64,000 nucleotides of DNA. Origin: Naegleria gruberi (taxonomy: Eukaryota). The DNA lies in NCBI GenBank assembly GCA_000004985.1, contig GG738918.1. One strand, 5' to 3'. Position 1 is the first letter of the stretch, and the number at the start of each line of letters is the position of its first letter. Shown one piece after another: positions 17,055 through 35,353 of the stretch. Under the pieces are notes generated by a model, which did no database searches, had not been told where the DNA came from, and worked only from the letters and a program-made list of their open reading frames with translations. The translations under genes and the position numbers were made by a program.

Positions 17055-19949
17055 TTATTGCTTCTTTGCTCTTTGTTCGAATACTTTGCTGAGTTCATTT
17101 GTGCTTGAGACAGCTTTGACTGGTTTAAAGAGACCTGACTTCTTTTTCTTTTGTTGTTGAATAATTTGTTCTGATGAGGATAAAGCTTGTTTAAGCTTTT
17201 CAATTTCATCAACTAAAACTTGTTTCTTTTGCTTTTGTTTTTCCTTTTCTTCTTGGGTTGCACTCTTTTGAGCTCTCAAAGTATCCAATTCATTTTGAAG
17301 CTCAATAATTCTGTTATTTTGGAGTTCAATTTTCTTATTGGCTGATTGAAGTTTGGATCTTTCACTTTGAATTTGTTGTCTTGAGTGATTTGCTTCTGTT
17401 TGAAGTTTCTCCTTCTCATCTTGAATCTTTTCCAATCTGTTTCTCAATTCGAACAAATCATTTGCCCAGTTTCTTCCCAACTTTTGCTGCTGTTGGTTGG
17501 TTGGAGTGCTTGGTTTGGCGGAGCCTTTCTCCATCTCCATTTGCAATTCCGCTAATTCTTGCTTAAGATTTTCTTTTTGGAGTGTTAATTGCTTCAAGTC
17601 CTTCTCCTTTGATTTGATTTGCTCCTCGTATTCTTCTTTGATTTTTTCATAGGATTCGGTCTTGTCCTCCATTAATTCCTCTAATGCTTTCACATCTTTC
17701 TTTAATTGTTTGATTTCATCTTTGATTTTATCGGTATCTTCCTCAACATCTTGAAGTTCTCCTTCAAGCTCTTCAGTTTTATCCTTCTCAGCATCGAGAT
17801 CATCTTCGGCTCTATCAAGTTTCTTATTAAGATCTTTCTCAATAGTTGCAGAATTTTTCTTTTCTTCTTTAAGCTCTGCCTTTAATTTTTCTATTAACTT
17901 ATCCTTCTTACTTTCAACTGATGCAGCCGAGTCTTTCACCTTTTTCACTTTTGTAGTGTATTCGTCAATTATGAAATCTTCCAAATCTTCATCAATTTCT
18001 GTACTTCCCTTTTTGGTCAACTCTGCCTTCTTAACTTGAGTTTTCAACATGACAATTTCTTCCTCTAGACTAAGATTTTCTTTTTCCAACTTCTTTAATT
18101 TATCTTTCAATTCATCAACTGAGTCTTCAGCAGCATCTAATTGCCCAAGATACTCATTAAGTTCAGTTTCTATATCTACACATTCGTCTTCAAGATTGAA
18201 TACTTCTTTTTCAAGCTTCTTTACCTTCTGAGAAAGTTTCTTGTTTTCTTTTTCTAATCTTGAAATTTCTCTCTTATTAAATTCCTCTACACTTCCTAAT
18301 TCAGCTTCAACGCTTGCGGTTTTTCTTTTCTCATCTTCGTGTTTGCATTCTAAATCAAAAATTCTTTCATTGAGTTGAGTGTTCAACTTTCTGTACATCT
18401 TATTACTCTCTGTCAAACTTTCAATGGATGAAATGGTTTTGGCTCTAGCCTCACTGTCAGAGATATTTTGAGCCATTTCAATCAGCTGGATTGCATTATG
18501 TTTGGCATCTTCCTTTGCATTTTCTAATTCCTTCATCAAATCTAATCTCTTCTTTTCTTCATCAAGGATTTGATCTTTGAGTGCTTTGACTTCCAAAGAG
18601 AGTTCATCAACTTTAAACTTGCATTCATTTCTAATATCTTCTTTTTGTTTTTCTGACGATTCAATTTTTTCATTTACAATGTCAAGCTCATCTTCAAGTT
18701 TTTCATTTGTTTCTTTCAGCTTTTTGATAGAACTCTTAAGGGTAGTATTTTCATTTGTAAGTTCCTTGATGGTTTGTTTGTAAGAAGATGTTTCTTCCTT
18801 ATATTTACATTCCAATTCATCCAACTTGTGAGCCAATTCGGCTTTTGAAAGAGAGTTATCGCCATCTTTGCTTGATTTGAGTATTGCTATTTGTTCCTCA
18901 AGTTTTTTAATGATTTGCATTAATTCTGTTGGGCTTTTGTAAGTGTTTTGTTTTGCTACACACTTGATGTTCTTCATTTTCAATCCGAACTTCAGACTTG
19001 AAACAGATTCTTCTCCACACAAAGGAGTTGGTGAAAGATTACAAATAAGGGTAGCCTTAGAGTTTCCCCCAAGAGTTTCTTTCAAAATTTTTGTTAGCTT
19101 CGAATCTTCAAATGGTATATCAGACTTCTTATCGAGGATGGAATCAACACAAACTCCTAGATTTGATAAAGACAATACAAGATTCTTTTGTTCGTCCTCC
19201 ACTGTTCTCTTTTCACTTCCTGCCATATCAACGAATAACAATTGACCTACAGTCGAAGAACTATCCTTGCTAAGACTTTCAACTCTAATGATGAAGATAG
19301 AATGTGATTGAGCAGGATCTTGATTTGTTCTTGTTGACAGTGAGAGCCTATTATTGTTTCCTATTTTGATTATATCAAGCATTTCATCTTCGGTTGTGAC
19401 ATATTCTTCTGTTAATCTATCAACGTAAACTCCTCTCTTTGGGGAATCAATTATAGTTAAATCTCTCTTTTCCTTATCAAATAAATCATTGATTTTTTCA
19501 TTATAAATTTCGAGGAAGGAACAACCAATCTTATATTCAATATTCTCATCTCCACTTCTAATAATTTCAAACATTTCCTTTGCAGTTCTTGGAATTAATC
19601 CAAATAATTCTTCCTTGTCAAGTGATCCAGTCATTGTATATGTTTTTCCTGCTCCTGTCTGTCCGTATGCCATCATTGTTACATTAAAGCCTTTAATAAC
19701 ATCTTTTACAAGTGGTTTACACACGTCTTCATATAATTCCTCCTGTTTTGTATCGTTCTTAAACACTTTATCAACAATGAAGGAATTATTTCCAATGGCT
19801 TGATTATCAGTTGATACCTTAAAAGTATGGTCTCCTTCAAAATCGTATGTTAATTTGTATGAAGTTTTCTCTTGTTTTTCCTTAGTTGTTATTGGTCTAA
19901 AACGAGCAACAACTCTAACGTTTTGCACTTGCCTCAAATTCGCAGACAT
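17055..19949 (-). CDS. kinesin heavy-chain-like motor protein: N-terminal motor domain and ~650-aa coiled-coil tail
   Basis: ATG at 19949 (MSANLRQ). P-loop GQTGAGKTYTM, switch II FVDMAGSEK, then a long E/K/L-rich heptad tail. The ORF track's earlier start is a TTG. Confidence 0.85.
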   Translation of the reverse strand: MSANLRQVQNVRVVARFRPITTKEKQEKTSYKLTYDFEGDHTFKVSTDNQAIGNNSFIVDKVFKNDTKQEELYEDVCKPLVKDVIKGFNVTMMAYGQTGAGKTYTMTGSLDKEELFGLIPRTAKEMFEIIRSGDENIEYKIGCSFLEIYNEKINDLFDKEKRDLTIIDSPKRGVYVDRLTEEYVTTEDEMLDIIKIGNNNRLSLSTRTNQDPAQSHSIFIIRVESLSKDSSSTVGQLLFVDMAGSEKRTVEDEQKNLVLSLSNLGVCVDSILDKKSDIPFEDSKLTKILKETLGGNSKATLICNLSPTPLCGEESVSSLKFGLKMKNIKCVAKQNTYKSPTELMQIIKKLEEQIAILKSSKDGDNSLSKAELAHKLDELECKYKEETSSYKQTIKELTNENTTLKSSIKKLKETNEKLEDELDIVNEKIESSEKQKEDIRNECKFKVDELSLEVKALKDQILDEEKKRLDLMKELENAKEDAKHNAIQLIEMAQNISDSEARAKTISSIESLTESNKMYRKLNTQLNERIFDLECKHEDEKRKTASVEAELGSVEEFNKREISRLEKENKKLSQKVKKLEKEVFNLEDECVDIETELNEYLGQLDAAEDSVDELKDKLKKLEKENLSLEEEIVMLKTQVKKAELTKKGSTEIDEDLEDFIIDEYTTKVKKVKDSAASVESKKDKLIEKLKAELKEEKKNSATIEKDLNKKLDRAEDDLDAEKDKTEELEGELQDVEEDTDKIKDEIKQLKKDVKALEELMEDKTESYEKIKEEYEEQIKSKEKDLKQLTLQKENLKQELAELQMEMEKGSAKPSTPTNQQQQKLGRNWANDLFELRNRLEKIQDEKEKLQTEANHSRQQIQSERSKLQSANKKIELQNNRIIELQNELDTLRAQKSATQEEKEKQKQKKQVLVDEIEKLKQALSSSEQIIQQQKKKKSGLFKPVKAVSSTNELSKVFEQRAKKQ

Positions 19950-20299
19950 CCTTCCGATTAGCCTTTGATACAGTACTAAAATCCTCAATGCAACAAAATC
20001 CTCAGTAAATTTTTCGAATGATTTTTTTTAAAGGTGCTGCCCTCAATTGCCGCTGCTTTTGGATACCAACTTCCGATTCTGAAAAGTTGTATTCAAAGGT
20101 CCAAACTCTAGCATTAGTTTCTCAATCAGAATCATCAAGAATTGAAAAAGTTTGGATAATTCAATACGTTGAGAGGAGTGCTCTGAACATTAGTCACCTT
20201 AGTACGGAACTTGGAAATCAGTCTGTGATATTAAAGAAAACATGAAGAATGAACTTGGAAACAACTTGAAAAAATTAGCTACATCTACATCAATTATCT

Positions 20300-21885: not shown

Positions 21886-23403
21886 ATGCCAAAAGAGAAG
21901 GGGAGAGGTAATGGTGTGGAGAGTAAAGTTGCATGTTTGGCCTGTCGTCGTGCTCATAAAAAATGTGATAGAAAATTACCTTCATGTGCTAGATGTTCTT
22001 CAAAGGGATGGTCATGTAATTATGATCAAATAGATCGGAGGTTTAAACCAGTTGAGGTAATGAATGAATTGAATAATGATGTTGGAAATTCAAATGTTGA
22101 GTTTAATCATCAGGATGGAATGAATATTGTTGACAATCAGGTGGTGGAGGTGAATGAAAATTGGATTCAACATTCAATGACGGAGGAAACTATTAGAATA
22201 TATAAGGAGGTTATCTATGTGGGAGTTCCTTGCTTCTCAAATGAAGATTATGCCAACATGTTGAGGATGTCTGTGAAGGAAATGAATGAAACTAGGAAGG
22301 ATATTCTTGCATTGCTATTGTCAATTCAGTGCTTGTGTGAGAATATGTGGGGATTTCTCCCAGCTGCTCAGAGAACTGCTGAAAAATCAAGGGATGTACT
22401 AAGGATTGTTTATGAGGATTTTGGAAATCCGTTTGTTGCTTCTTCATTCCTTAATTTGTCATCGTTTTATTCTGTCATTGGAAATGTAGAGATGGCAAAA
22501 GGATACTTGGCAATAATAGAACATTTTTGCTCAAAACTAGAACAGGATTCTACCAGACACGTATTAATAGAAAAGTATAATTGTAAGGTTGATCCAATTT
22601 CTTTCAAAGCTTTTTCAGCATTAGTTGAGATCAACTGTTCTGATTCATACCCTATACCAGATATTGTTTCCCTGAAAAAGTTATATGGTGCCATTTCAGA
22701 TGTTAGCCAGTTAGTTTACAATTTAGATTCTTCACTTGAAAAGAGGATTGAGGGTATGACGTTATTTGTTGCTATGGCAATTAATGAAACATCAGAAAGA
22801 CCTAAATCAGAACTTTCAACCCATATTCTCGATATATGTCTCAAAATATTTGTTAATGGATTGAATATTGTTAGGGCAATTATTAATGGATCCAAATATT
22901 CAGAACCTAGTTTATTGGACGAGAATACCAAAATAATGGAATATTATGCCTATGAAATTACAAAGTTATGTCAAGATCCAGCGTCAGTGGTAGTGCCACC
23001 ATATGTCACTTCTTTTATAGTCACAGCCACAAAGTTAAATTTTGAAATTTTCAAATCTATTGTTAAGGGTGATAGAAAAAATAATCAAAATACGATTATT
23101 ATGAGAGAAGATGGAAGTATTGAACCTTCTATGGAAACAGTTGACTATCATAGTGTTATGATGATTGAATTGAATACTTTGAAACAATTGAGTAAGAGAT
23201 ATCCGTATGTTCACAAAATATTTGAAGAGGTGAATGATTTTATCATGAATAATGGAAAAGAATCAATGATTAGAAATACTAACAACAACAACAACGACAT
23301 TCAACATTTTATTAATCTGCTATATGAAGAACCTTCAGATATTTACAGTGAAATGAAAAAATTTATAGATAATTTGAAAAAGACAACAACCACTAATCTA
23401 TAA
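21886..23403 (+). CDS. Zn(II)2Cys6 binuclear-cluster (fungal GAL4-type) DNA-binding protein
   Basis: N-terminal ACLACRRAHKKCDRKLPSCARCSSKGWSC fits CX2CX6CX5-9CX2CX6-8C followed by a basic linker. Confidence 0.7.
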   Translation: MPKEKGRGNGVESKVACLACRRAHKKCDRKLPSCARCSSKGWSCNYDQIDRRFKPVEVMNELNNDVGNSNVEFNHQDGMNIVDNQVVEVNENWIQHSMTEETIRIYKEVIYVGVPCFSNEDYANMLRMSVKEMNETRKDILALLLSIQCLCENMWGFLPAAQRTAEKSRDVLRIVYEDFGNPFVASSFLNLSSFYSVIGNVEMAKGYLAIIEHFCSKLEQDSTRHVLIEKYNCKVDPISFKAFSALVEINCSDSYPIPDIVSLKKLYGAISDVSQLVYNLDSSLEKRIEGMTLFVAMAINETSERPKSELSTHILDICLKIFVNGLNIVRAIINGSKYSEPSLLDENTKIMEYYAYEITKLCQDPASVVVPPYVTSFIVTATKLNFEIFKSIVKGDRKNNQNTIIMREDGSIEPSMETVDYHSVMMIELNTLKQLSKRYPYVHKIFEEVNDFIMNNGKESMIRNTNNNNNDIQHFINLLYEEPSDIYSEMKKFIDNLKKTTTTNL

Positions 23404-25397: not shown

Positions 25398-26798
25398 ATG
25401 TTTAAACCACTGAAATATGTTCATCCACTAGCAGGACTTTCGTTCAAACTCTTTCGTTCTTCTCCTTTGAAGAATAAAACCCATAATACTACTACTACTA
25501 CTAATTTGAAGAACAACCTTAATAATACTATTAAACAATTATCACAAGATCTTTATGATCTATTTGATCCTTCTAATATGAAATGTGTTAGAGATTTTGA
25601 AACTTGTGATGAGTTAGAATTTCTATTAAGTAATAAAAGTACAATCTATTTTAATAGTGAAGAATTGGATAATTATAAAACAAGTATAAAATCAGAACAA
25701 GAAAATATTCACAAACAAGAAATATTCAATTCAATTAATTTTACTAATAGGAATCCAAAATGTTTACATGAAGTTGATTATTGGTTTATTGATAATTTGT
25801 TATATTTTAATTATCGTGAATGGTCACATGAATATACTCTTTCTATTTTACCATTTAGTAGATTATTACCAGAAGTTATTGAAATTCTAAAAATAGATGG
25901 TAATATAAATGGAAATATTTTAGATTTTATTGTAAATAAATTACAATTACAAGAAGAAAAAATAATTTTAATTAGTCAAATTAAAGGATTATTACCAAAA
26001 TTATCAACTTTTGATATTGAAGTATTAATTGAATGGATTATTAGAAATTTATTTTTTAAAACAGATATTTCTAAAATTCCACAATTTTTAAAAGAAATTA
26101 AAATTAATAATCAAATAATTAAACAAGAAGATGAAATTAAAGATTATAATTTAATAATTAATGAAGAATTAAAAACATATATATTATCATGTGCAAGTGC
26201 TAGATTAATTGATCATAAATATAAAGAAGCTTATCATGAATGTCTATATTTAGAAAAAAACAATTATGATAAAAATATTATTAAAAGTATTCCTAAATTT
26301 TTAAAAGACAATTTAAAATATCATATTCCAAAAGCGGAAAATAATGATAAAATTATTACTATAAATGAAAGACCTTATAATTTTAGTCAAACTCATAAAA
26401 TGATTAATTTTACAATTAATTTTACAGATGATGAAATAACATTTTTAGATTTTGAACCCATTTATTACATGATGGCAAAAATAATTGATTATTACAATAA
26501 GAATATTAGATCTATTGAATGGCCAACTAATTTGGATAATTTAAATGATGATGAATCTAAAATTGATGCTATTTTTGATGATTTATTTTATTATAAAATT
26601 ACAGTTTCACAATTATTTAGATGGATTGAAAGTATTGAATTACAATTTAGTGAAGGAAAACAAATTTGGTTTCATTTTACAATTGTAATTAATAGTCAAT
26701 TGTTTCCTTTTATTGATATGAGTTATGGAACAATGCAAATGGTATTTTCTAGAGGACATGAAAATATGACTTGTTGTTTTACTGATGTTCAATTTTAA
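25398..26798 (+). CDS. hypothetical Ile/Asn/Lys-rich protein
   Basis: 466-aa ORF with ATG in an A-rich context. No motif recognised. Confidence 0.4.
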   Translation: MFKPLKYVHPLAGLSFKLFRSSPLKNKTHNTTTTTNLKNNLNNTIKQLSQDLYDLFDPSNMKCVRDFETCDELEFLLSNKSTIYFNSEELDNYKTSIKSEQENIHKQEIFNSINFTNRNPKCLHEVDYWFIDNLLYFNYREWSHEYTLSILPFSRLLPEVIEILKIDGNINGNILDFIVNKLQLQEEKIILISQIKGLLPKLSTFDIEVLIEWIIRNLFFKTDISKIPQFLKEIKINNQIIKQEDEIKDYNLIINEELKTYILSCASARLIDHKYKEAYHECLYLEKNNYDKNIIKSIPKFLKDNLKYHIPKAENNDKIITINERPYNFSQTHKMINFTINFTDDEITFLDFEPIYYMMAKIIDYYNKNIRSIEWPTNLDNLNDDESKIDAIFDDLFYYKITVSQLFRWIESIELQFSEGKQIWFHFTIVINSQLFPFIDMSYGTMQMVFSRGHENMTCCFTDVQF

Positions 26799-26876: not shown

Positions 26877-28238
26877 ATGGGTGAAGTGATTCATGTACAA
26901 GTTGGAGGGTGTGGCAATCATATTGGTTATCAATTTTATGAAAGAATTGCCAAACATGAACATTCAATTCTTCCCAATGGTGAAAAAAGCCTAACTCGTA
27001 ATCATGAAAATATTTACACTGATATTGATGAAGAAAATTACTATACAAATGTATTCTTTGAAGAGAGTAAGAGTGGTCGATGGTCTCCGAGGGCTGTTTT
27101 AGCAGATTTGGAGCCTTATTCCATAGATCAAATACAACAATTAGAATATGGAAGAATATTTAAGAGCGAATATAATGCAATTTATCAGTATGGTGCTGGA
27201 GGAAATTGGGCAAAAGGGCACTATACGATTGGAGCTGAATGTGTGGATAATGTTATGGAGGTAGTGAGGAAACAAGCTGAAAATTGTGGGAACTTACAAG
27301 GATTTCAATTGATGCATTCGTTGGGAGGAGGATCAGGATCAGGTTGGGGTACTCTGGTGATATCTAAACTGAGAGAGGAGTATCCTGATAAGATTGTTTC
27401 TAGTTGTTCTGTTTTTCCTTCTTTGAAAGCATCATCTACAAATCCTGTTGAGGCCTATAATTGTGTTTTGGCTTTTCACCAATTGATTGAGAATACAGAT
27501 TTCGTATCATGTTTTGATAATGAAGCTCTGATTGAAATACAATCAAAATTGAATCTAACCAATGAAGGTTTTAGTGCAATTAATAGAATAATTGCAAAGG
27601 TTATGTCTGATGTAACCTGTTCATTTCGGTTTCCTTCCCATTTAGGGTATAATTTAAGAAAGCTTGCCACCAATTTGATACCTTTTCCTAGACTCCACTT
27701 TGCAACAATTTCACACACTCCAATTAGTGCTGATAGTAATAATTCCTCAAAGAATATATCAGAACTATTCCAAAATTTGACATCTCCAAATAATGTCATG
27801 TGTGGCTGTGATCCTAGAAGTGGTCGGTATATGGCTGCCATTGCTTTATTCAGAGGCTCTATGACATTGAAAGAAGTGAATGATGTTGCTTCATCTGTTT
27901 CCAATAAGAATTCTTCTAATTGGGTTGATTGGATGCCACCCAATTTAAAATCAAATGTTTGTAAGAAGAAATCAGGTGATTTTGAGTCGGCTACTCTCAT
28001 TGCAAACTCCACATCTATTCGATTCTTGCTCACCAATATTGAAAATCGATTCGATAACTTATTCAAAAGGAAAGCGTATCTTCACAACTTGTGTTATGAA
28101 GGAATGGATGAAATGGAATTTTCAGAGGCACAACATAATCTTAATGATATCATAACTGAATACAAGTGTTACGGAGACGAAATTCTTGACGATTTCGATG
28201 ATAGTAACCTTGATCTTTCTTCTAAGGACTTGATATAA
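26877..28238 (+). CDS. divergent beta-tubulin-like protein (tubulin/FtsZ GTPase fold)
   Basis: Collinear with beta-tubulin end to end. MGEVIHVQVGGCGNHIG (T1 loop, canonical GQCGNQIG). GAGGNWAKGHYTIGAE. LGGGSGSGWGTLVISKLREEYPD (canonical GGGTGSG). NEALIEIQ, LRKLATNLIPFPRLHF, AYLHNLCYEGMDEMEFSEAQHNLNDIITEY. Roughly half of positions are conserved relative to canonical beta-tubulin. Confidence 0.8.
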   Translation: MGEVIHVQVGGCGNHIGYQFYERIAKHEHSILPNGEKSLTRNHENIYTDIDEENYYTNVFFEESKSGRWSPRAVLADLEPYSIDQIQQLEYGRIFKSEYNAIYQYGAGGNWAKGHYTIGAECVDNVMEVVRKQAENCGNLQGFQLMHSLGGGSGSGWGTLVISKLREEYPDKIVSSCSVFPSLKASSTNPVEAYNCVLAFHQLIENTDFVSCFDNEALIEIQSKLNLTNEGFSAINRIIAKVMSDVTCSFRFPSHLGYNLRKLATNLIPFPRLHFATISHTPISADSNNSSKNISELFQNLTSPNNVMCGCDPRSGRYMAAIALFRGSMTLKEVNDVASSVSNKNSSNWVDWMPPNLKSNVCKKKSGDFESATLIANSTSIRFLLTNIENRFDNLFKRKAYLHNLCYEGMDEMEFSEAQHNLNDIITEYKCYGDEILDDFDDSNLDLSSKDLI

Positions 28239-31049: not shown

Positions 31050-33503
31050 TTATTTAAAGAGTTTTAATACCGTTTTGAATGTTCTTGTTTGATTCTCATT
31101 AAATATTTTGAGGTTTTGTTTCTTTTTCAGCATGTCATTAATAACGTTTGAATCTTTGTAAACTTTGTGAGGTTTTACAACTTCAGTTTGAACTTTGATA
31201 TTTTTCAGTAGATGGTTAGGACGGTTAGGATTGAGGAAACTATAATTTGGAAGAATGTCCTTGGCAGGTAGTGAATTTAATTGATTTTGAGGGAATTTGG
31301 TAAGAGTCATTTTGGTGGTTTCTTGATGTTGGAGGAAGAAGGAATAATCATCCTTATTTGGAACTGCTTCCAATTTTTCTGAAATAGCAGAACGAATCCT
31401 TTTCAATGTATCTTCTTTTAACCAGTTTGAAAGAACATGAATAAAATCTTCACGATGATCAAATAAGTGTTGAACTGGAGAATTTTCAAATACTTGTCTA
31501 ACCTCAGGTATTGGAACAATATACTTGTGTCTATGTGAAATAGATGATGAAATCTAATATTGACAATCTACTTACTTTGCAGAAACACATGAAGATACAC
31601 AAAATTCTAGTGGATTCAAAATGAAATTATCAGAAGCTGGCACATTAATTGTCAAGAATGAATCTGGTTTACCTTCCACTTCCTTCTCACAATATAAAAC
31701 TAATTCATCAATTGATGGAATTGATTTAGGTTTGTAATATTGTGAATATCCCAAATTCTTTCCCTGAATATAACTCATAAACCAGGCACACATCACCAAA
31801 TAATCCTTCACAATTGGTTGATAGGATACTTCTGCAATCTTTTGTTGGAGTTTCCTTATTGAATTTGCATACTTTTCAATTTGTTCCTGATAGAAAAATG
31901 ATAAAAACTCATTAAATTGTTCTCTAGTCTCAAAAAGTCCAGTTTTAACTTTGGCTTCTCTGTGAAGTTCTCCATAATCAAAATTTAAGAAAATATTCTT
32001 GAATGCATTATTGAAAGCATCCTTCTTTGATTTACCTCTTGCTGTTGTAATGTAGGATTCTCCAATTTTGACCACGACTTGGAAATGTGGTTTTGGTTCT
32101 GCATCAATAATTTCATATTCCTCACATAGAAATTCTCTCTTTCCAAGATTTAATAAGGTAATAAGAAATACCATTGCTTCCTTTGTTGGAATATTATCAA
32201 TGTTAATCTTTGGAAATCCATTTTCCATTTCAGCTTTCTTCTTTGAATTGGATGTTTCAGTATCTTCATTTTCACCTTGCTTGAAATCCTTAATATAATC
32301 AGAATATAATGAAGATAGGAACTTGACATTGATTTTCATTTCACTTGGCTGTTTCAAATCATAATGTATTAAATACTCTCTATTTTCTGAATACTTTTGG
32401 TGAGCAATATATCTATCCATAAATAATTTAATATCAAATCTTCTCGGTTTAGAAATATAATCATTTCCACATAGAATAAATAAAAAGGTCATATCTGTAA
32501 TAATTCTCGATAAATCTTCATCTGATTTAGTTCTACATCGACGAGCAATTTGTTCCTTTAGTTTGGTAACATCATATAATTGATAAAAACCAGGCATATC
32601 TTTCACAAGAGTAATATGTCTATTGCGTGGTAAATTGAGAGCATATAAAACAAAATCTGAATCTCCAGAAACAATCAAATCTCTCTTCTCCTCCTTTTTG
32701 TGATTGTTTTTCTCTGATGAATAAATATGTTCAAGGATTTTAAACTCTCCCTCACCTTCTCTCCCAGCAGGTGAATGATAGAATGCAAGATTATTATTAA
32801 AAGTAGGATTTGTTAGCACCAATGCACCCAATTGCCAAATAACTAGTGAAACTTCTTGCATTAAATTTGTTCCTGGAACAAACCAAACAGAACTAATTGC
32901 CTTCTTTTCATTTCTTTCATTAATTACATTTTTCTGAATGAGTTTCAGGTAAATCTTTTGCACTTCAGTGAGAACAATCTCTTCATCCATATCTGATAAA
33001 TTAATAAATGAAACAAACGTATTTCCAGTATTTGTCATTGCACTATTCAAATATCTTCTAACTTTTTGTGTAATTAATTTACTTCTAGGTGCAGGACCAT
33101 CCACAGAAAAGAATAAACTTTCTCTAGCATCAAAATGATTCAAATATCTCATTACTCCCTCCAAAACAACAGAATGAAAAACCATTCTAGTATCTTGTGG
33201 AATTTCTTCATCTTCTCCTTCTATCTTTGTACCATTATCCTTTTCTGTTGTTGAATCTTGTTCCAAAATTGATTCCTTTCCTTGATTCATTACATTTTGA
33301 TGGTATTTCATCCTATTCATTATCTTTCTAGAACCATGTGTTGATTTATACAGCAGAGTATTAAAATCAAAATAAATATTATCATAAACATCCTCTGGTT
33401 TAATTGAATTATTCCTCCTCGTATTATTTAATTCATCTTTTGTGATGATGAAAGATTCTCCGAAGAGAATTGATAAAGTTTTGTAGAATGAATTAATTCC
33501 CAT
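31050..33503 (-). CDS. XRN-family 5'-3' exonuclease-like protein with a C-terminal dsRNA-binding motif; exons 31576..33503 and 31050..31530
   Basis: N-terminus MGINSFYKTL...YDNIYFDFNTLLYKSTH and FSVDGPAPRSKLITQKVRRY parallel XRN MGVP.FFRWL...FDNLYLDMNGIIH and AIDGVAPRAKMNQQRSRRF. A 45-nt GTAAGT..ATAG intron (31531..31575) is in frame. Near the C-terminus PKPHFQVVVKIGESYITTARGKSKKDAFNNAFKNIF has the dsRBD signature (..G.G.SKK.A...AA). Confidence 0.6.
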
Positions 33504-33715: not shown

Positions 33716-35071
33716 TTAATCGTTGAATTGAACAATAATATTAACACCACGATCGGCAATAACTTCAGTATCAGTAGCATAAAGTTCAGTTCCTGTATGG
33801 AATAATTCCTTGACCTTCTTCTTCAAGTTTGGTTCAGTCATTTGTCTGAGAGTTGCAGGTTTAGTCAAATACAAAGTTTGGTCACTAGTCAAATTACGTA
33901 ATGAAGCATTGTTGAATTGAATTGACTTGTCGGTTCTCAAAATATCTCTAAATTCATCCAAAGTAATATCTGATGAACAAGTAATTGTCTTTGAAACACC
34001 AGCAGGACCACATTGCAAACAATCTGGCTTTCTTTCATTCTTATAAGTGAATGTATAAATACCTTCACTTCCGTTAAACATCATGTAATCATCCAAGAAT
34101 GGAGTACAGAAAGTAGCCAATTTGAATGCTTCATTTGTACATGATGAAGCAATAATAGCATTGGTGGAGGCAATAGCAGGAATGATACCCTTGATGACAC
34201 CTTGTGTTAAACGGAATGTAACACCAGCAATACCAAAGTTCTTGGCACGTTCCAAAGACTTTTCATAGATCCATTGAACGTGTCTTGGATTATCACCATC
34301 AACTTGTTCATCATCAGGAATACCTTCCTTTCCTTTACAATTACGCCATTCTTCAATATAACAATATTGAATACAATGTTCAGGAAGACGTGGAGTTGTC
34401 TTTAAAGTACACATTGGATAATTTGTTTCATCAGTAGGGAATAAATCCAAAGTACATTCATAACAAGATGTAACACCTGGCAAGATAACTCTAGATTGTC
34501 CTTTAAAGCCTTCAGTACCACCATCAACCAAGGAAATCATGGAACTCATATCAACTTCAGTCTTTTCATCATCAACATATTGAATCAAAGAGAGGAGAGT
34601 ACTATTGATCCAACGACGAGCTGGAATAGAATCCAAACCAGCAATAATAATTCCAAATGATCTATAGAAATCAACAGACTTTTCTTGGATTGCACAAATG
34701 TGTGCTGTAACTTTAACACCTGGCACTCTTTCATTGACAAATCGAGCAGCAACTTCAGCCTTCATCTTACCAACATCACCATCACGGAACAAAAATTGTC
34801 TATTCAAATTACTTGTACTGATGGTATCCATATCAATGATATCAATATTACGGAAGCCACTCATTGCCAAATTCTTCACCAAATCGCAACCAAGACCACC
34901 AGCTCCAATAATTAAAACTTTGCAAGAATCTTGTAAAAATTGTTTAGTTTCATCACCAGCTTGGAAATCTGCTGGAGCAAATGGACCTGATCTCTTCAAA
35001 ATATAATCAAGATCTTTCCATCTTTCTGCTTCAATTTCAGGAGGGAATGATGTATCTACAACGCTGGCCAT
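33716..35071 (-). CDS. UBA3: NEDD8-activating enzyme E1 catalytic subunit (UBA3)
   Basis: ATG at 35071 (MASVVD). VLIIGAGGLGCDLVKNLAMSGF..IDMDTISTSNLNRQFLF (ThiF/MoeB nucleotide-binding), PMCTLKTTPRLPEHCIQY (catalytic Cys region), LIDGGTEGFKGQSRVILPG. Collinear with human UBA3 along the full length. Confidence 0.85.
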   Translation of the reverse strand: MASVVDTSFPPEIEAERWKDLDYILKRSGPFAPADFQAGDETKQFLQDSCKVLIIGAGGLGCDLVKNLAMSGFRNIDIIDMDTISTSNLNRQFLFRDGDVGKMKAEVAARFVNERVPGVKVTAHICAIQEKSVDFYRSFGIIIAGLDSIPARRWINSTLLSLIQYVDDEKTEVDMSSMISLVDGGTEGFKGQSRVILPGVTSCYECTLDLFPTDETNYPMCTLKTTPRLPEHCIQYCYIEEWRNCKGKEGIPDDEQVDGDNPRHVQWIYEKSLERAKNFGIAGVTFRLTQGVIKGIIPAIASTNAIIASSCTNEAFKLATFCTPFLDDYMMFNGSEGIYTFTYKNERKPDCLQCGPAGVSKTITCSSDITLDEFRDILRTDKSIQFNNASLRNLTSDQTLYLTKPATLRQMTEPNLKKKVKELFHTGTELYATDTEVIADRGVNIIVQFND

Positions 35072-35353
35072 TTTTTTTCTATGTATTGAATTGATCAAAC
35101 TTGCAGAGAACTTGAGTTTATTTTTAAATCCAAAGTTGCTGCTTTGAAAGGCTTGGGATGAACTCAACAACATTGAGAAATATTGTTGAACACAAGTGAA
35201 ACAATTTACAATGAATGATAGAGAGAGTTGGGGTTTTGAATTTGAATTTGTAATGGTGTGAATTTTTAAAAGAGATGATCAACTTTTGAAGTTATTGCCA
35301 ACAACATATTGTAGTTTTCCAGAAACCATGACATAAATTTTTTCACCTCAACA

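Follow-up and report, generated by a model that had tools for sequence, protein, structure and literature searches.

A highly divergent beta-tubulin paralog of Naegleria gruberi: placement in the beta family, altered contact loops and first evidence on its selection

The gene treated here lies within a 64,000-nucleotide stretch of Naegleria gruberi DNA (contig GG738918.1 of assembly GCA_000004985.1), which is called the window in what follows, and it encodes a very divergent member of the beta-tubulin family. It is one of the published "bonus" beta-tubulins of this organism and belongs to neither the flagellar nor the mitotic tubulin set. The preferred reading, regarded as probable from the sequence comparisons described below, is that it represents a highly diverged beta-tubulin isotype specific to the N. 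gruberi lineage, which would work as a specialised subunit of low abundance. The tubulin fold, most of the nucleotide pocket of the exchangeable site and the non-catalytic lysine that is typical of beta-tubulin in loop T7 are all kept.

Naegleria gave rise to the multi-tubulin hypothesis, and it now offers an internally controlled system for the co-evolution of tubulin sequence and microtubule function. The flagellar tubulins of N. gruberi are conserved and its mitotic ones divergent, with JGI 55748 and JGI 55900 as the mitotic beta-tubulins (Velle et al. 2022, PMC9036621). Besides, the 2010 genome survey yielded seven highly divergent "bonus" alpha-tubulins and five such beta-tubulins of unexplained role (Fulton 2022, PMC9081340); according to the same author they are shown in Fig. 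S4B of the genome paper by Fritz-Laylin et al. 2010. In the maximum-likelihood (ML) tree of Velle et al. 2022 (Data S4, PMC9036621) several N. gruberi sequences (53354, 44804, 44710, 44840 and others) are long-branched, and the bonus beta-tubulins fall outside the clade formed by the canonical and mitotic ones, none of them with an N. fowleri partner. The flagellar and mitotic sets have been studied, and the dozen or so bonus alpha- and beta-tubulins are listed by Fulton (2022) as an open question (PMC9081340). N. gruberi forms canonical centrioles de novo, and its genome contains genes for gamma-, delta- and epsilon-tubulin and for SAS-6 (PMC4819266), those for delta and epsilon being single (PMC9081340, PMC4819266). 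The original prediction, made from the DNA letters alone, had supposed an organism thought to lack centriolar tubulins, and in this point it was mistaken.

The gene and its divergence were already known, through the GenBank/RefSeq annotation and because the set to which it belongs was covered with the 2010 genome and in papers of 2014 and 2022. What is new here is that the mitotic and flagellar identities are excluded for this locus, that the positions kept and lost are mapped, that a first, small-sample, evidence of purifying selection is provided, and that the gene is found to be nearer to canonical beta-tubulin than to the one other bonus paralog tested.

Identity of the locus and placement in the beta family

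The open reading frame (ORF; 26877..28238, plus strand) runs from ATG to stop without interruption or introns, and its product of 453 amino acids is identical to XP_002670151.1 / EFC37407.1 / UniProt D2W0C0, "beta-tubulin [Naegleria gruberi]", in an exact-sequence look-up. The record EFC37407 lies on a 222-kb contig and that of mitotic 55900 (EFC38385) on the 259-kb scaffold_64; from the order of GenBank accessions and the contig sizes, the gene is probably JGI 44840 on scaffold_74. Neither its accessions nor its sequence strings were found in the accessible portions of the text and supplements of Velle et al. 2022 and of the wider literature searched. Two Pfam domains exceed their gathering scores, PF00091 (Tubulin, E 7e-52, residues 3-221) and PF03953 (Tubulin_C, E 5e-26, residues 271-388), which is the arrangement of the tubulin superfamily: a Tubulin/FtsZ GTPase domain and then the tubulin C-terminal domain.

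The gene is intact, native and single-exon. Its codon usage falls inside the range of the neighbouring genes, with a GC content at third codon positions (GC3) of 0.27, and for this reason it is considered native; the effective number of codons (Nc) of 46 corresponds to the weakest codon bias in the window. These values serve only as evidence of a native gene and not as a proxy of expression. Homologs were searched among 5.8 billion non-redundant proteins and, in an exhaustive HMMER scan, among 1.84 billion cluster representatives. In both searches the sole close relative was a protein (P0001) with 97.6% identity, encoded on a metagenome contig of 1,996 bp from the European Nucleotide Archive (ENA ERZ929261, contig k127_505828, 1-1996; here L001). 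This contig shows 98.3% DNA identity to the window over 1,952 bases, and it carries the same downstream gene on the opposite strand, its start included. As the locus is 98.3% identical, the ERZ929261 sample must have contained a close relative of N. gruberi NEG-M.

Related to this, the idea that the gene derives from contamination or from an error of assembly or sequencing, or else is the only beta-tubulin of the organism, has a negligible probability. The original prediction had itself named contamination, sequencing error and a sole beta-tubulin as refuting it. The first ones are ruled out because the locus is present in an independent metagenome assembly, and moreover the gene is embedded in a contiguous N. 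gruberi window; the last one is refuted by the canonical flagellar beta-tubulin and the two mitotic ones encoded in the same genome.

The protein shows its highest similarity to beta-tubulins. The best 60 PDB sequence matches are all beta-tubulin chains (E about 1e-125 to 1e-130), and the alignments extend end to end with few gaps (query 1-437, target 1-430). At such E-values chance similarity can be left out of account. Identity to canonical beta-tubulins is 44-51% (342-408 bits): 47-49% to those of pig, Chlamydomonas and Arabidopsis and 46% to that of yeast by BLASTP, and 44-47% when human TBB1 and pig beta are considered. Alpha-tubulins give 34-36% (248-290 bits) and human gamma-tubulin 31.7% (232 bits; the sequence used matches PDB 7qj0_U at 451/451 residues), so the similarity to beta exceeds that to alpha or gamma, as it should in a member of the beta family. 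With both Pfam domains present, the description of a full-length protein, collinear with beta-tubulin and matching it at about half of the positions, has been borne out. The stretch covering T7 and H8 reads NLRKLATN, its Lys being aligned with pig K252 where alpha-tubulin has TEF with the catalytic Glu, and the eight-residue insertion between S9 and S10 that is specific to alpha-tubulin is absent from the alignment.

A neighbour-joining (NJ) tree was built from 440 columns with Kimura distances and 200 bootstraps; delta-, epsilon- and zeta-tubulins are not among its sequences. The alpha/beta split is recovered with a bootstrap of 100% and the protein is located on the beta side; within it, the protein falls outside the crown clade of canonical and mitotic beta-tubulins (69% bootstrap), on a long branch, and the groupings among the long-branched divergent beta-like proteins, including one from Euplotes, are below 20%. 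The phylogeny that had been proposed as a check is thus firm in placing the protein on the beta side of the alpha/beta split and not in its neighbours outside the crown. The delta, epsilon and zeta classes are well below 40% identical to beta-tubulin, and because the protein shows 48% identity to beta by alignment, its membership in any of them is implausible. Judging from these comparisons the protein is of the beta family by descent, yet it is not a canonical beta-tubulin, because T1 is altered and only 151 of 211 conserved positions are kept.

Another possibility is that the gene represents an ancient separate tubulin class and not a derived beta-tubulin, that is, a cryptic subfamily, as the original prediction had suggested, comparable to the theta and iota tubulins proposed in ciliates. 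The position outside the canonical and mitotic clade, among long-branched beta-like sequences of ciliates and environmental protists, would agree with this idea both in the NJ tree and in the published ML tree, and unspecified divergent N. gruberi sequences have been reported to join theta/iota of Paramecium in a basal position within beta (Findeisen et al. 2014, PMC4202323). However, those authors themselves argued that such divergent Naegleria and ciliate sequences are beta-tubulins and not new classes (PMC4202323), and bootstraps below 20% among long branches are the pattern expected of independent fast-evolving offshoots subjected to long-branch attraction. Besides, the best similarity of the protein is to canonical beta-tubulins (48-51%), whereas it is only 40% to the bonus beta XP_002673357.1 (P0154) and 35-42% to other divergent beta-like proteins, and the two protein searches gave no ortholog in any other taxon. 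With 100% bootstrap for the beta side and an identity to beta of 48%, compared with 34-36% for alpha and 32% for gamma, a separate class is very improbable.

The sequences of the mitotic and flagellar beta-tubulins were taken from Data S6 of Velle et al. 2022. The protein is 48.4% identical to the flagellar beta JGI 83350, 45.0% and 44.8% to the two mitotic ones, and 44-45% to the N. fowleri orthologs of the latter. It shares with JGI 83350 the family and the overall architecture, and 434 residues of the two can be aligned almost without gaps. Nevertheless, it differs in an insertion of nine residues in the H1-S2 loop, another of one residue in T5, a deletion of two residues in the M-loop and 60 substitutions at conserved positions; JGI 83350 has all the conserved positions and a C-terminal Tyr, and the protein described here has neither. 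A flagellar identity was rejected, since identity to animal beta-tubulin is 44-47% against the 75% or so, at least, that would be required, and since the tail ends in ...SSKDLI with no C-terminal Tyr.

A mitotic identity was also rejected: the four published quantitative PCR primers for 55748 and 55900 have zero sites in the window, allowing up to 3 mismatches, the identity is 45%, the protein is outside the mitotic clade (100% bootstrap) and no N. fowleri ortholog was found in the searched collection, which holds N. fowleri proteins. It could still be asked whether the gene is a third, more diverged beta-tubulin of the closed mitotic spindle, expressed in amoebae beside 55748 and 55900. In favour of this, the invariant W397 is lost on both sides, with Asn in this protein and Ser or Thr in the mitotic pair, and the changes T312A and V193I are common to them. 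They also resemble each other in their diverged M-loops and in tails that are less acidic and lack the C-terminal Tyr. But the loss of W397 is also seen in unrelated divergent beta-like proteins, the published tree agrees in leaving such sequences outside the mitotic clade, and only two mitotic beta-tubulins are named by Velle et al. 2022 (PMC9036621). The mitotic proteins keep GQCGNQ and GGGTGSG intact together with 89-91% of the conserved positions, and they have N. fowleri and Acrasis orthologs; in contrast, the protein described here has T1, T3, T4, T5 and T7 altered, keeps 72% and has no ortholog found. A third mitotic beta-tubulin is consequently unlikely. The claim that this is a distinct and very divergent paralog, and not the working beta-tubulin of the organism, holds, as the conserved flagellar JGI 83350 and the two mitotic beta-tubulins coexist with it.

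Altered loops, contact surfaces and tail

Conservation was measured on 211 columns of the alignment, each of them conserved to 95% or more among 63 canonical beta-tubulins. The flagellar beta 83350 keeps all of them (211/211, 100%) and the four mitotic beta-tubulins (two from N. gruberi and two from N. fowleri) 89-91%. The protein analysed here keeps 151 (72%) and has 60 substituted, while the bonus beta P0154 keeps 60% and human alpha-tubulin 59%. The regions in which the changes are located are summarised in Table 1, with substitutions in pig numbering.

Most of the residues of the nucleotide site are kept, among them G10, C12, G13, N14, all the T4 glycines, E181, Y183, N184, N204 and N226, and at position 222 an aromatic residue (Phe). 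The two motif changes that had been pointed out, GGCGNH in T1 and GGGSGSG in T4, are exact in sequence and position, and the His is strain-specific: P0001, encoded on L001, has GGCGNQ, so that position 15 is polymorphic between strains. The tubulin signature of loop T4 is described by the PROSITE pattern [SAG]-G-G-T-G-[SA]-G, which GGGSGSG breaks literally by a conservative change of Thr to Ser at pig position 143. In FtsZ proteins the positions that correspond to Q11 and N99 are occupied by Gly; if this analogy holds, Q11G and N99G need not abolish GTP binding. The Ile found at the position of E108 is the residue that alpha-tubulin carries there.

Other changes affect the elements of contact between subunits. 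The H1-S2 loop has nine extra residues in comparison with canonical beta-tubulin, and the M-loop has two residues fewer, the conserved segment ...SQQYR... of the lateral contact being missing from it. In T5 there is one extra residue together with P173L, V175A, D177S, V179P and P182A, although the ribose site still has its Glu, Tyr and Asn, and in T7 the changes are G244S, Q245H, N247G and D249N, K252 being kept as in beta-tubulins instead of the catalytic Glu of alpha. In H11', the invariant Trp of the longitudinal contact, W397, is Asn, whereas the mitotic beta-tubulins of Naegleria have Ser or Thr at this position (PMC9036621). Of the 21 residues of the tail, 8 are acidic (7 Asp, 1 Glu) and 1 is basic, and there is no aromatic residue at its end.

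The AlphaFold model has a mean predicted local distance difference test score (pLDDT) of 80.5 and a predicted template modelling score (pTM) of 0.84. The best 50 Foldseek matches in PDB are tubulin chains with 46-49% identity and template modelling (TM) scores of 0.84-0.92, and those shared with the sequence search are beta-tubulins. Confidence is low in the H1-S2 insert, T5, T7, the M-loop, H11' and the tail, which coincides with the interface elements that have been remodelled.

Table 1. Location of the gene and of the altered regions of its product in the window.
Feature	Position	Strand	Description	Basis
Divergent beta-tubulin paralog	26877..28238	+	complete coding sequence, single exon	ORF, Pfam, exact-sequence match
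T1 phosphate-binding loop, aa 10-15	26904..26921	+	GGCGNH (canonical GQCGNQ); Q11G, Q15H	alignment
H1-S2 loop segment, aa 41-51	26997..27029	+	RNHENIYTDID; pLDDT 64	alignment, AlphaFold
T3 loop and start of H3, aa 106-119	27192..27233	+	GAGGNWAKGHYTIG; N99G, E108I	alignment
T4 tubulin signature, aa 150-156	27324..27344	+	GGGSGSG; T143S, glycines kept	alignment
T5 loop, aa 181-195	27417..27461	+	PSLKASSTNPVEAYN	alignment
T7 loop and H8, aa 250-266	27624..27674	+	FRFPSHLGYNLRKLATN	alignment
S7 end and M-loop, aa 276-293	27702..27755	+	ATISHTPISADSNNSSKN; low model confidence	alignment, AlphaFold
H11' segment, aa 401-407	28077..28097	+	YLHNLCY; W397 replaced by Asn	alignment
C-terminal tail, aa 433-453	28173..28235	+	GDEILDDFDDSNLDLSSKDLI; pLDDT below 50	alignment, AlphaFold

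Relatives, selection and possible function

Apart from P0001, the relatives of the protein are distant: neither search gave any protein between about 52% and 97% identity to it. The searched collection includes the N. fowleri proteome, from which both mitotic beta-tubulins were found by exact match, and Willaertia (P0058). Although N. fowleri proteins are in this collection, no N. fowleri ortholog of the gene was found there. Within the sampled data, the paralog appears to be confined to the N. gruberi lineage, and the lineage-specific origin that had been proposed seems to be right, with no ortholog above about 51% in either search.

Between the coding sequences of the gene and of P0001 there are 10 nonsynonymous and 9 synonymous differences, together with one in-frame codon indel. 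The ratio of nonsynonymous to synonymous substitution rates (dN/dS) is 0.285, the neutral expectation being about 79% nonsynonymous changes (binomial P 0.008). Only one of the 10 amino-acid replacements lies within 210 conserved tubulin columns (hypergeometric P = 0.018), and it is the H15/Q15 difference in T1. These numbers are small, and they point to purifying selection on the gene, weaker than that on canonical tubulins.

The main rival to the preferred reading is that the gene is a functionless or nearly functionless duplicate, which drifts under relaxed constraint toward a pseudogene and is annotated because its ORF is still open. The erosion described above is what such a duplicate would show: only 72% of the canonical conserved positions are kept, nucleotide-loop and interface residues that are normally fixed have been altered, T1 varies at position 15, codon bias is the weakest in the window and N. 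fowleri has no ortholog in the searched collection. Related to this, if the gene is JGI 44840, its model name (fgeneshHS_pm...) is without the "estExt" prefix of the flagellar and mitotic genes, which according to the JGI naming conventions would hint at no expressed sequence tag (EST) support. Nevertheless, two independent assemblies both carry the ORF of 453 codons in intact form, the sole indel is in frame, the dN/dS is significantly low, the replacements avoid the conserved tubulin core, and the glycines of the signature motif as well as C12, N204, N226, E181 and K252 have all been kept. A functionless duplicate is thus considered rather unlikely.

Comparison with other divergent tubulins helps to place the gene. 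The bonus beta-tubulins of N. gruberi NEG-M share with it the genome, the annotation as "beta-tubulin", the long branch outside the canonical and mitotic clades and the lack of an N. fowleri partner. The bonus beta P0154 is only 40% identical to it, has lost T1 and keeps 60% of the conserved positions against 72%, so of the two bonus beta-tubulins compared P0154 is the more eroded one, whereas the nucleotide pocket of the protein described here is still recognisable. P0154, which lies on a 339-kb contig, begins with MPKPIEATQTPPTAAS..., without a recognisable T1 loop or H1, and its T4 is GGGCGSG; judging from these residues, a canonical mode of nucleotide binding is improbable for it. The two-residue deletion of the M-loop was considered as a derived character shared with P0154 and was rejected, as the gaps shift in a larger alignment; M-loop deletions also occur in many unrelated divergent beta-like proteins and are no evidence of common origin.

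The beta-like tubulins of ciliates (theta/iota of Paramecium, and those of Tetrahymena and Oxytricha) are lineage-specific and fast-evolving and coexist with canonical beta-tubulin, as does the gene treated here (PMC4202323). They are located at the base of beta, and their nucleotide loops and tails are eroded in the same way. Divergent beta-like proteins such as P0262 from Euplotes crassus show the same kinds of changes in T1, T3, T7 and the M-loop, but there is no specific tie to them (bootstrap below 20%), the comparison having been made without the named Paramecium, Tetrahymena and Oxytricha proteins. The resemblance looks like parallel evolution and not shared ancestry.

The HMMER scan also revealed many full-length, highly divergent beta-like tubulins (P0150-P0266), of environmental or metagenomic origin or from a ciliate (Euplotes), a foraminiferan and a fungus, in which the T1, T3 and T7 loops are altered, the M-loops are shortened and the Trp of H11' is lost. 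Their sequences suggest that duplicates of beta-tubulin have escaped from lattice constraints repeatedly and in parallel.

Regarding function, under the preferred reading of a specialised isotype the protein would still bind GTP and would pair head-to-tail with an alpha-tubulin, possibly a divergent bonus alpha. The lateral contact appears to have been rebuilt on both partners, that is, in the M-loop and in the H1-S2 loop, and the elements of the longitudinal contact would have been rebuilt as well (T5, T7 and W397N in H11'). Three presumed phosphate-sensing positions are altered (Q11G, N99G and T143S), as is E108I, and the tail is nearly devoid of glutamates. Because of the changes in lateral and longitudinal contacts, phosphate-sensing residues and tail, the protein is probably not a bulk subunit of the lattice. 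It is more likely to be a specialised subunit present in low abundance, with altered assembly dynamics and partner binding, in some structure or life stage.

Several points weigh against this interpretation. Every functional statement in it is derived from sequence alone, and the pairing with a bonus alpha-tubulin is speculation. The selection test is based on just 19 substitutions, a dN/dS of 0.29 means far weaker constraint than canonical tubulins show, and the two copies do not agree at position 15 of the T1 nucleotide loop, where one has H and the other Q. Besides, canonical beta-tubulins made up the alignment behind the AlphaFold model, which is therefore no independent evidence for the fold.

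A more specific proposal, which is tentative and rather doubtful at present, is that the protein is a working subunit of a non-canonical dimer or polymer of the N. gruberi lineage, formed with one of the seven equally divergent bonus alpha-tubulins and constituting a third tubulin system, hitherto unseen, in addition to the flagellar and the mitotic one. It might be located in the basal-body triplets, the rootlet region, cysts or a sexual stage, and the FtsZ-like glycines of T1 and T3, together with the rebuilt lateral contacts, would reflect a different lattice or GTPase behaviour.

If the gene builds or regulates a distinct structure, Naegleria would have a third genetically separate tubulin pool. 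If it is inert, it would illustrate how far a tubulin can drift once it is freed from lattice constraints. Either way, its existence and divergence are not the new element. Since the nucleotide pocket is recognisable and there are signs of purifying selection, the gene is a reasonable candidate for a first functional test.

Neighbouring genes

The ORF located immediately upstream (25398..26798, plus strand) encodes an Asn-rich protein of 466 amino acids with no Pfam match, and it has the most extreme composition in the window (GC 21%, GC3 9%). It ends 78 bp before the start codon of the tubulin gene, and therefore the upstream region of the latter is very short. About 7 kb upstream, on the minus strand, there is an ORF of 976 amino acids (17055..19988) with an N-terminal kinesin motor (Pfam Kinesin, E 3.7e-86), whose best structure matches are kinesin-1 heavy chains (1goj, E 1.6e-72); its closeness to the tubulin gene is probably coincidental.

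Downstream, two housekeeping genes are found on the minus strand: the first one (31572..33503) encodes a protein with the N-terminal domain of XRN 5'-3' exonucleases, and the second one (33716..35173) encodes a ThiF and E2_bind protein that resembles the catalytic subunit of the NEDD8-activating enzyme. Finally, between the kinesin and the Asn-rich ORF, the plus strand carries an ORF of 505 amino acids (21886..23403), in whose N-terminal part a Zn(2)-Cys(6) binuclear cluster domain is recognised (E 4.6e-9). Although DNA-binding domains of this type are commonly regarded as fungal, this one lies in a heterolobosean genome.

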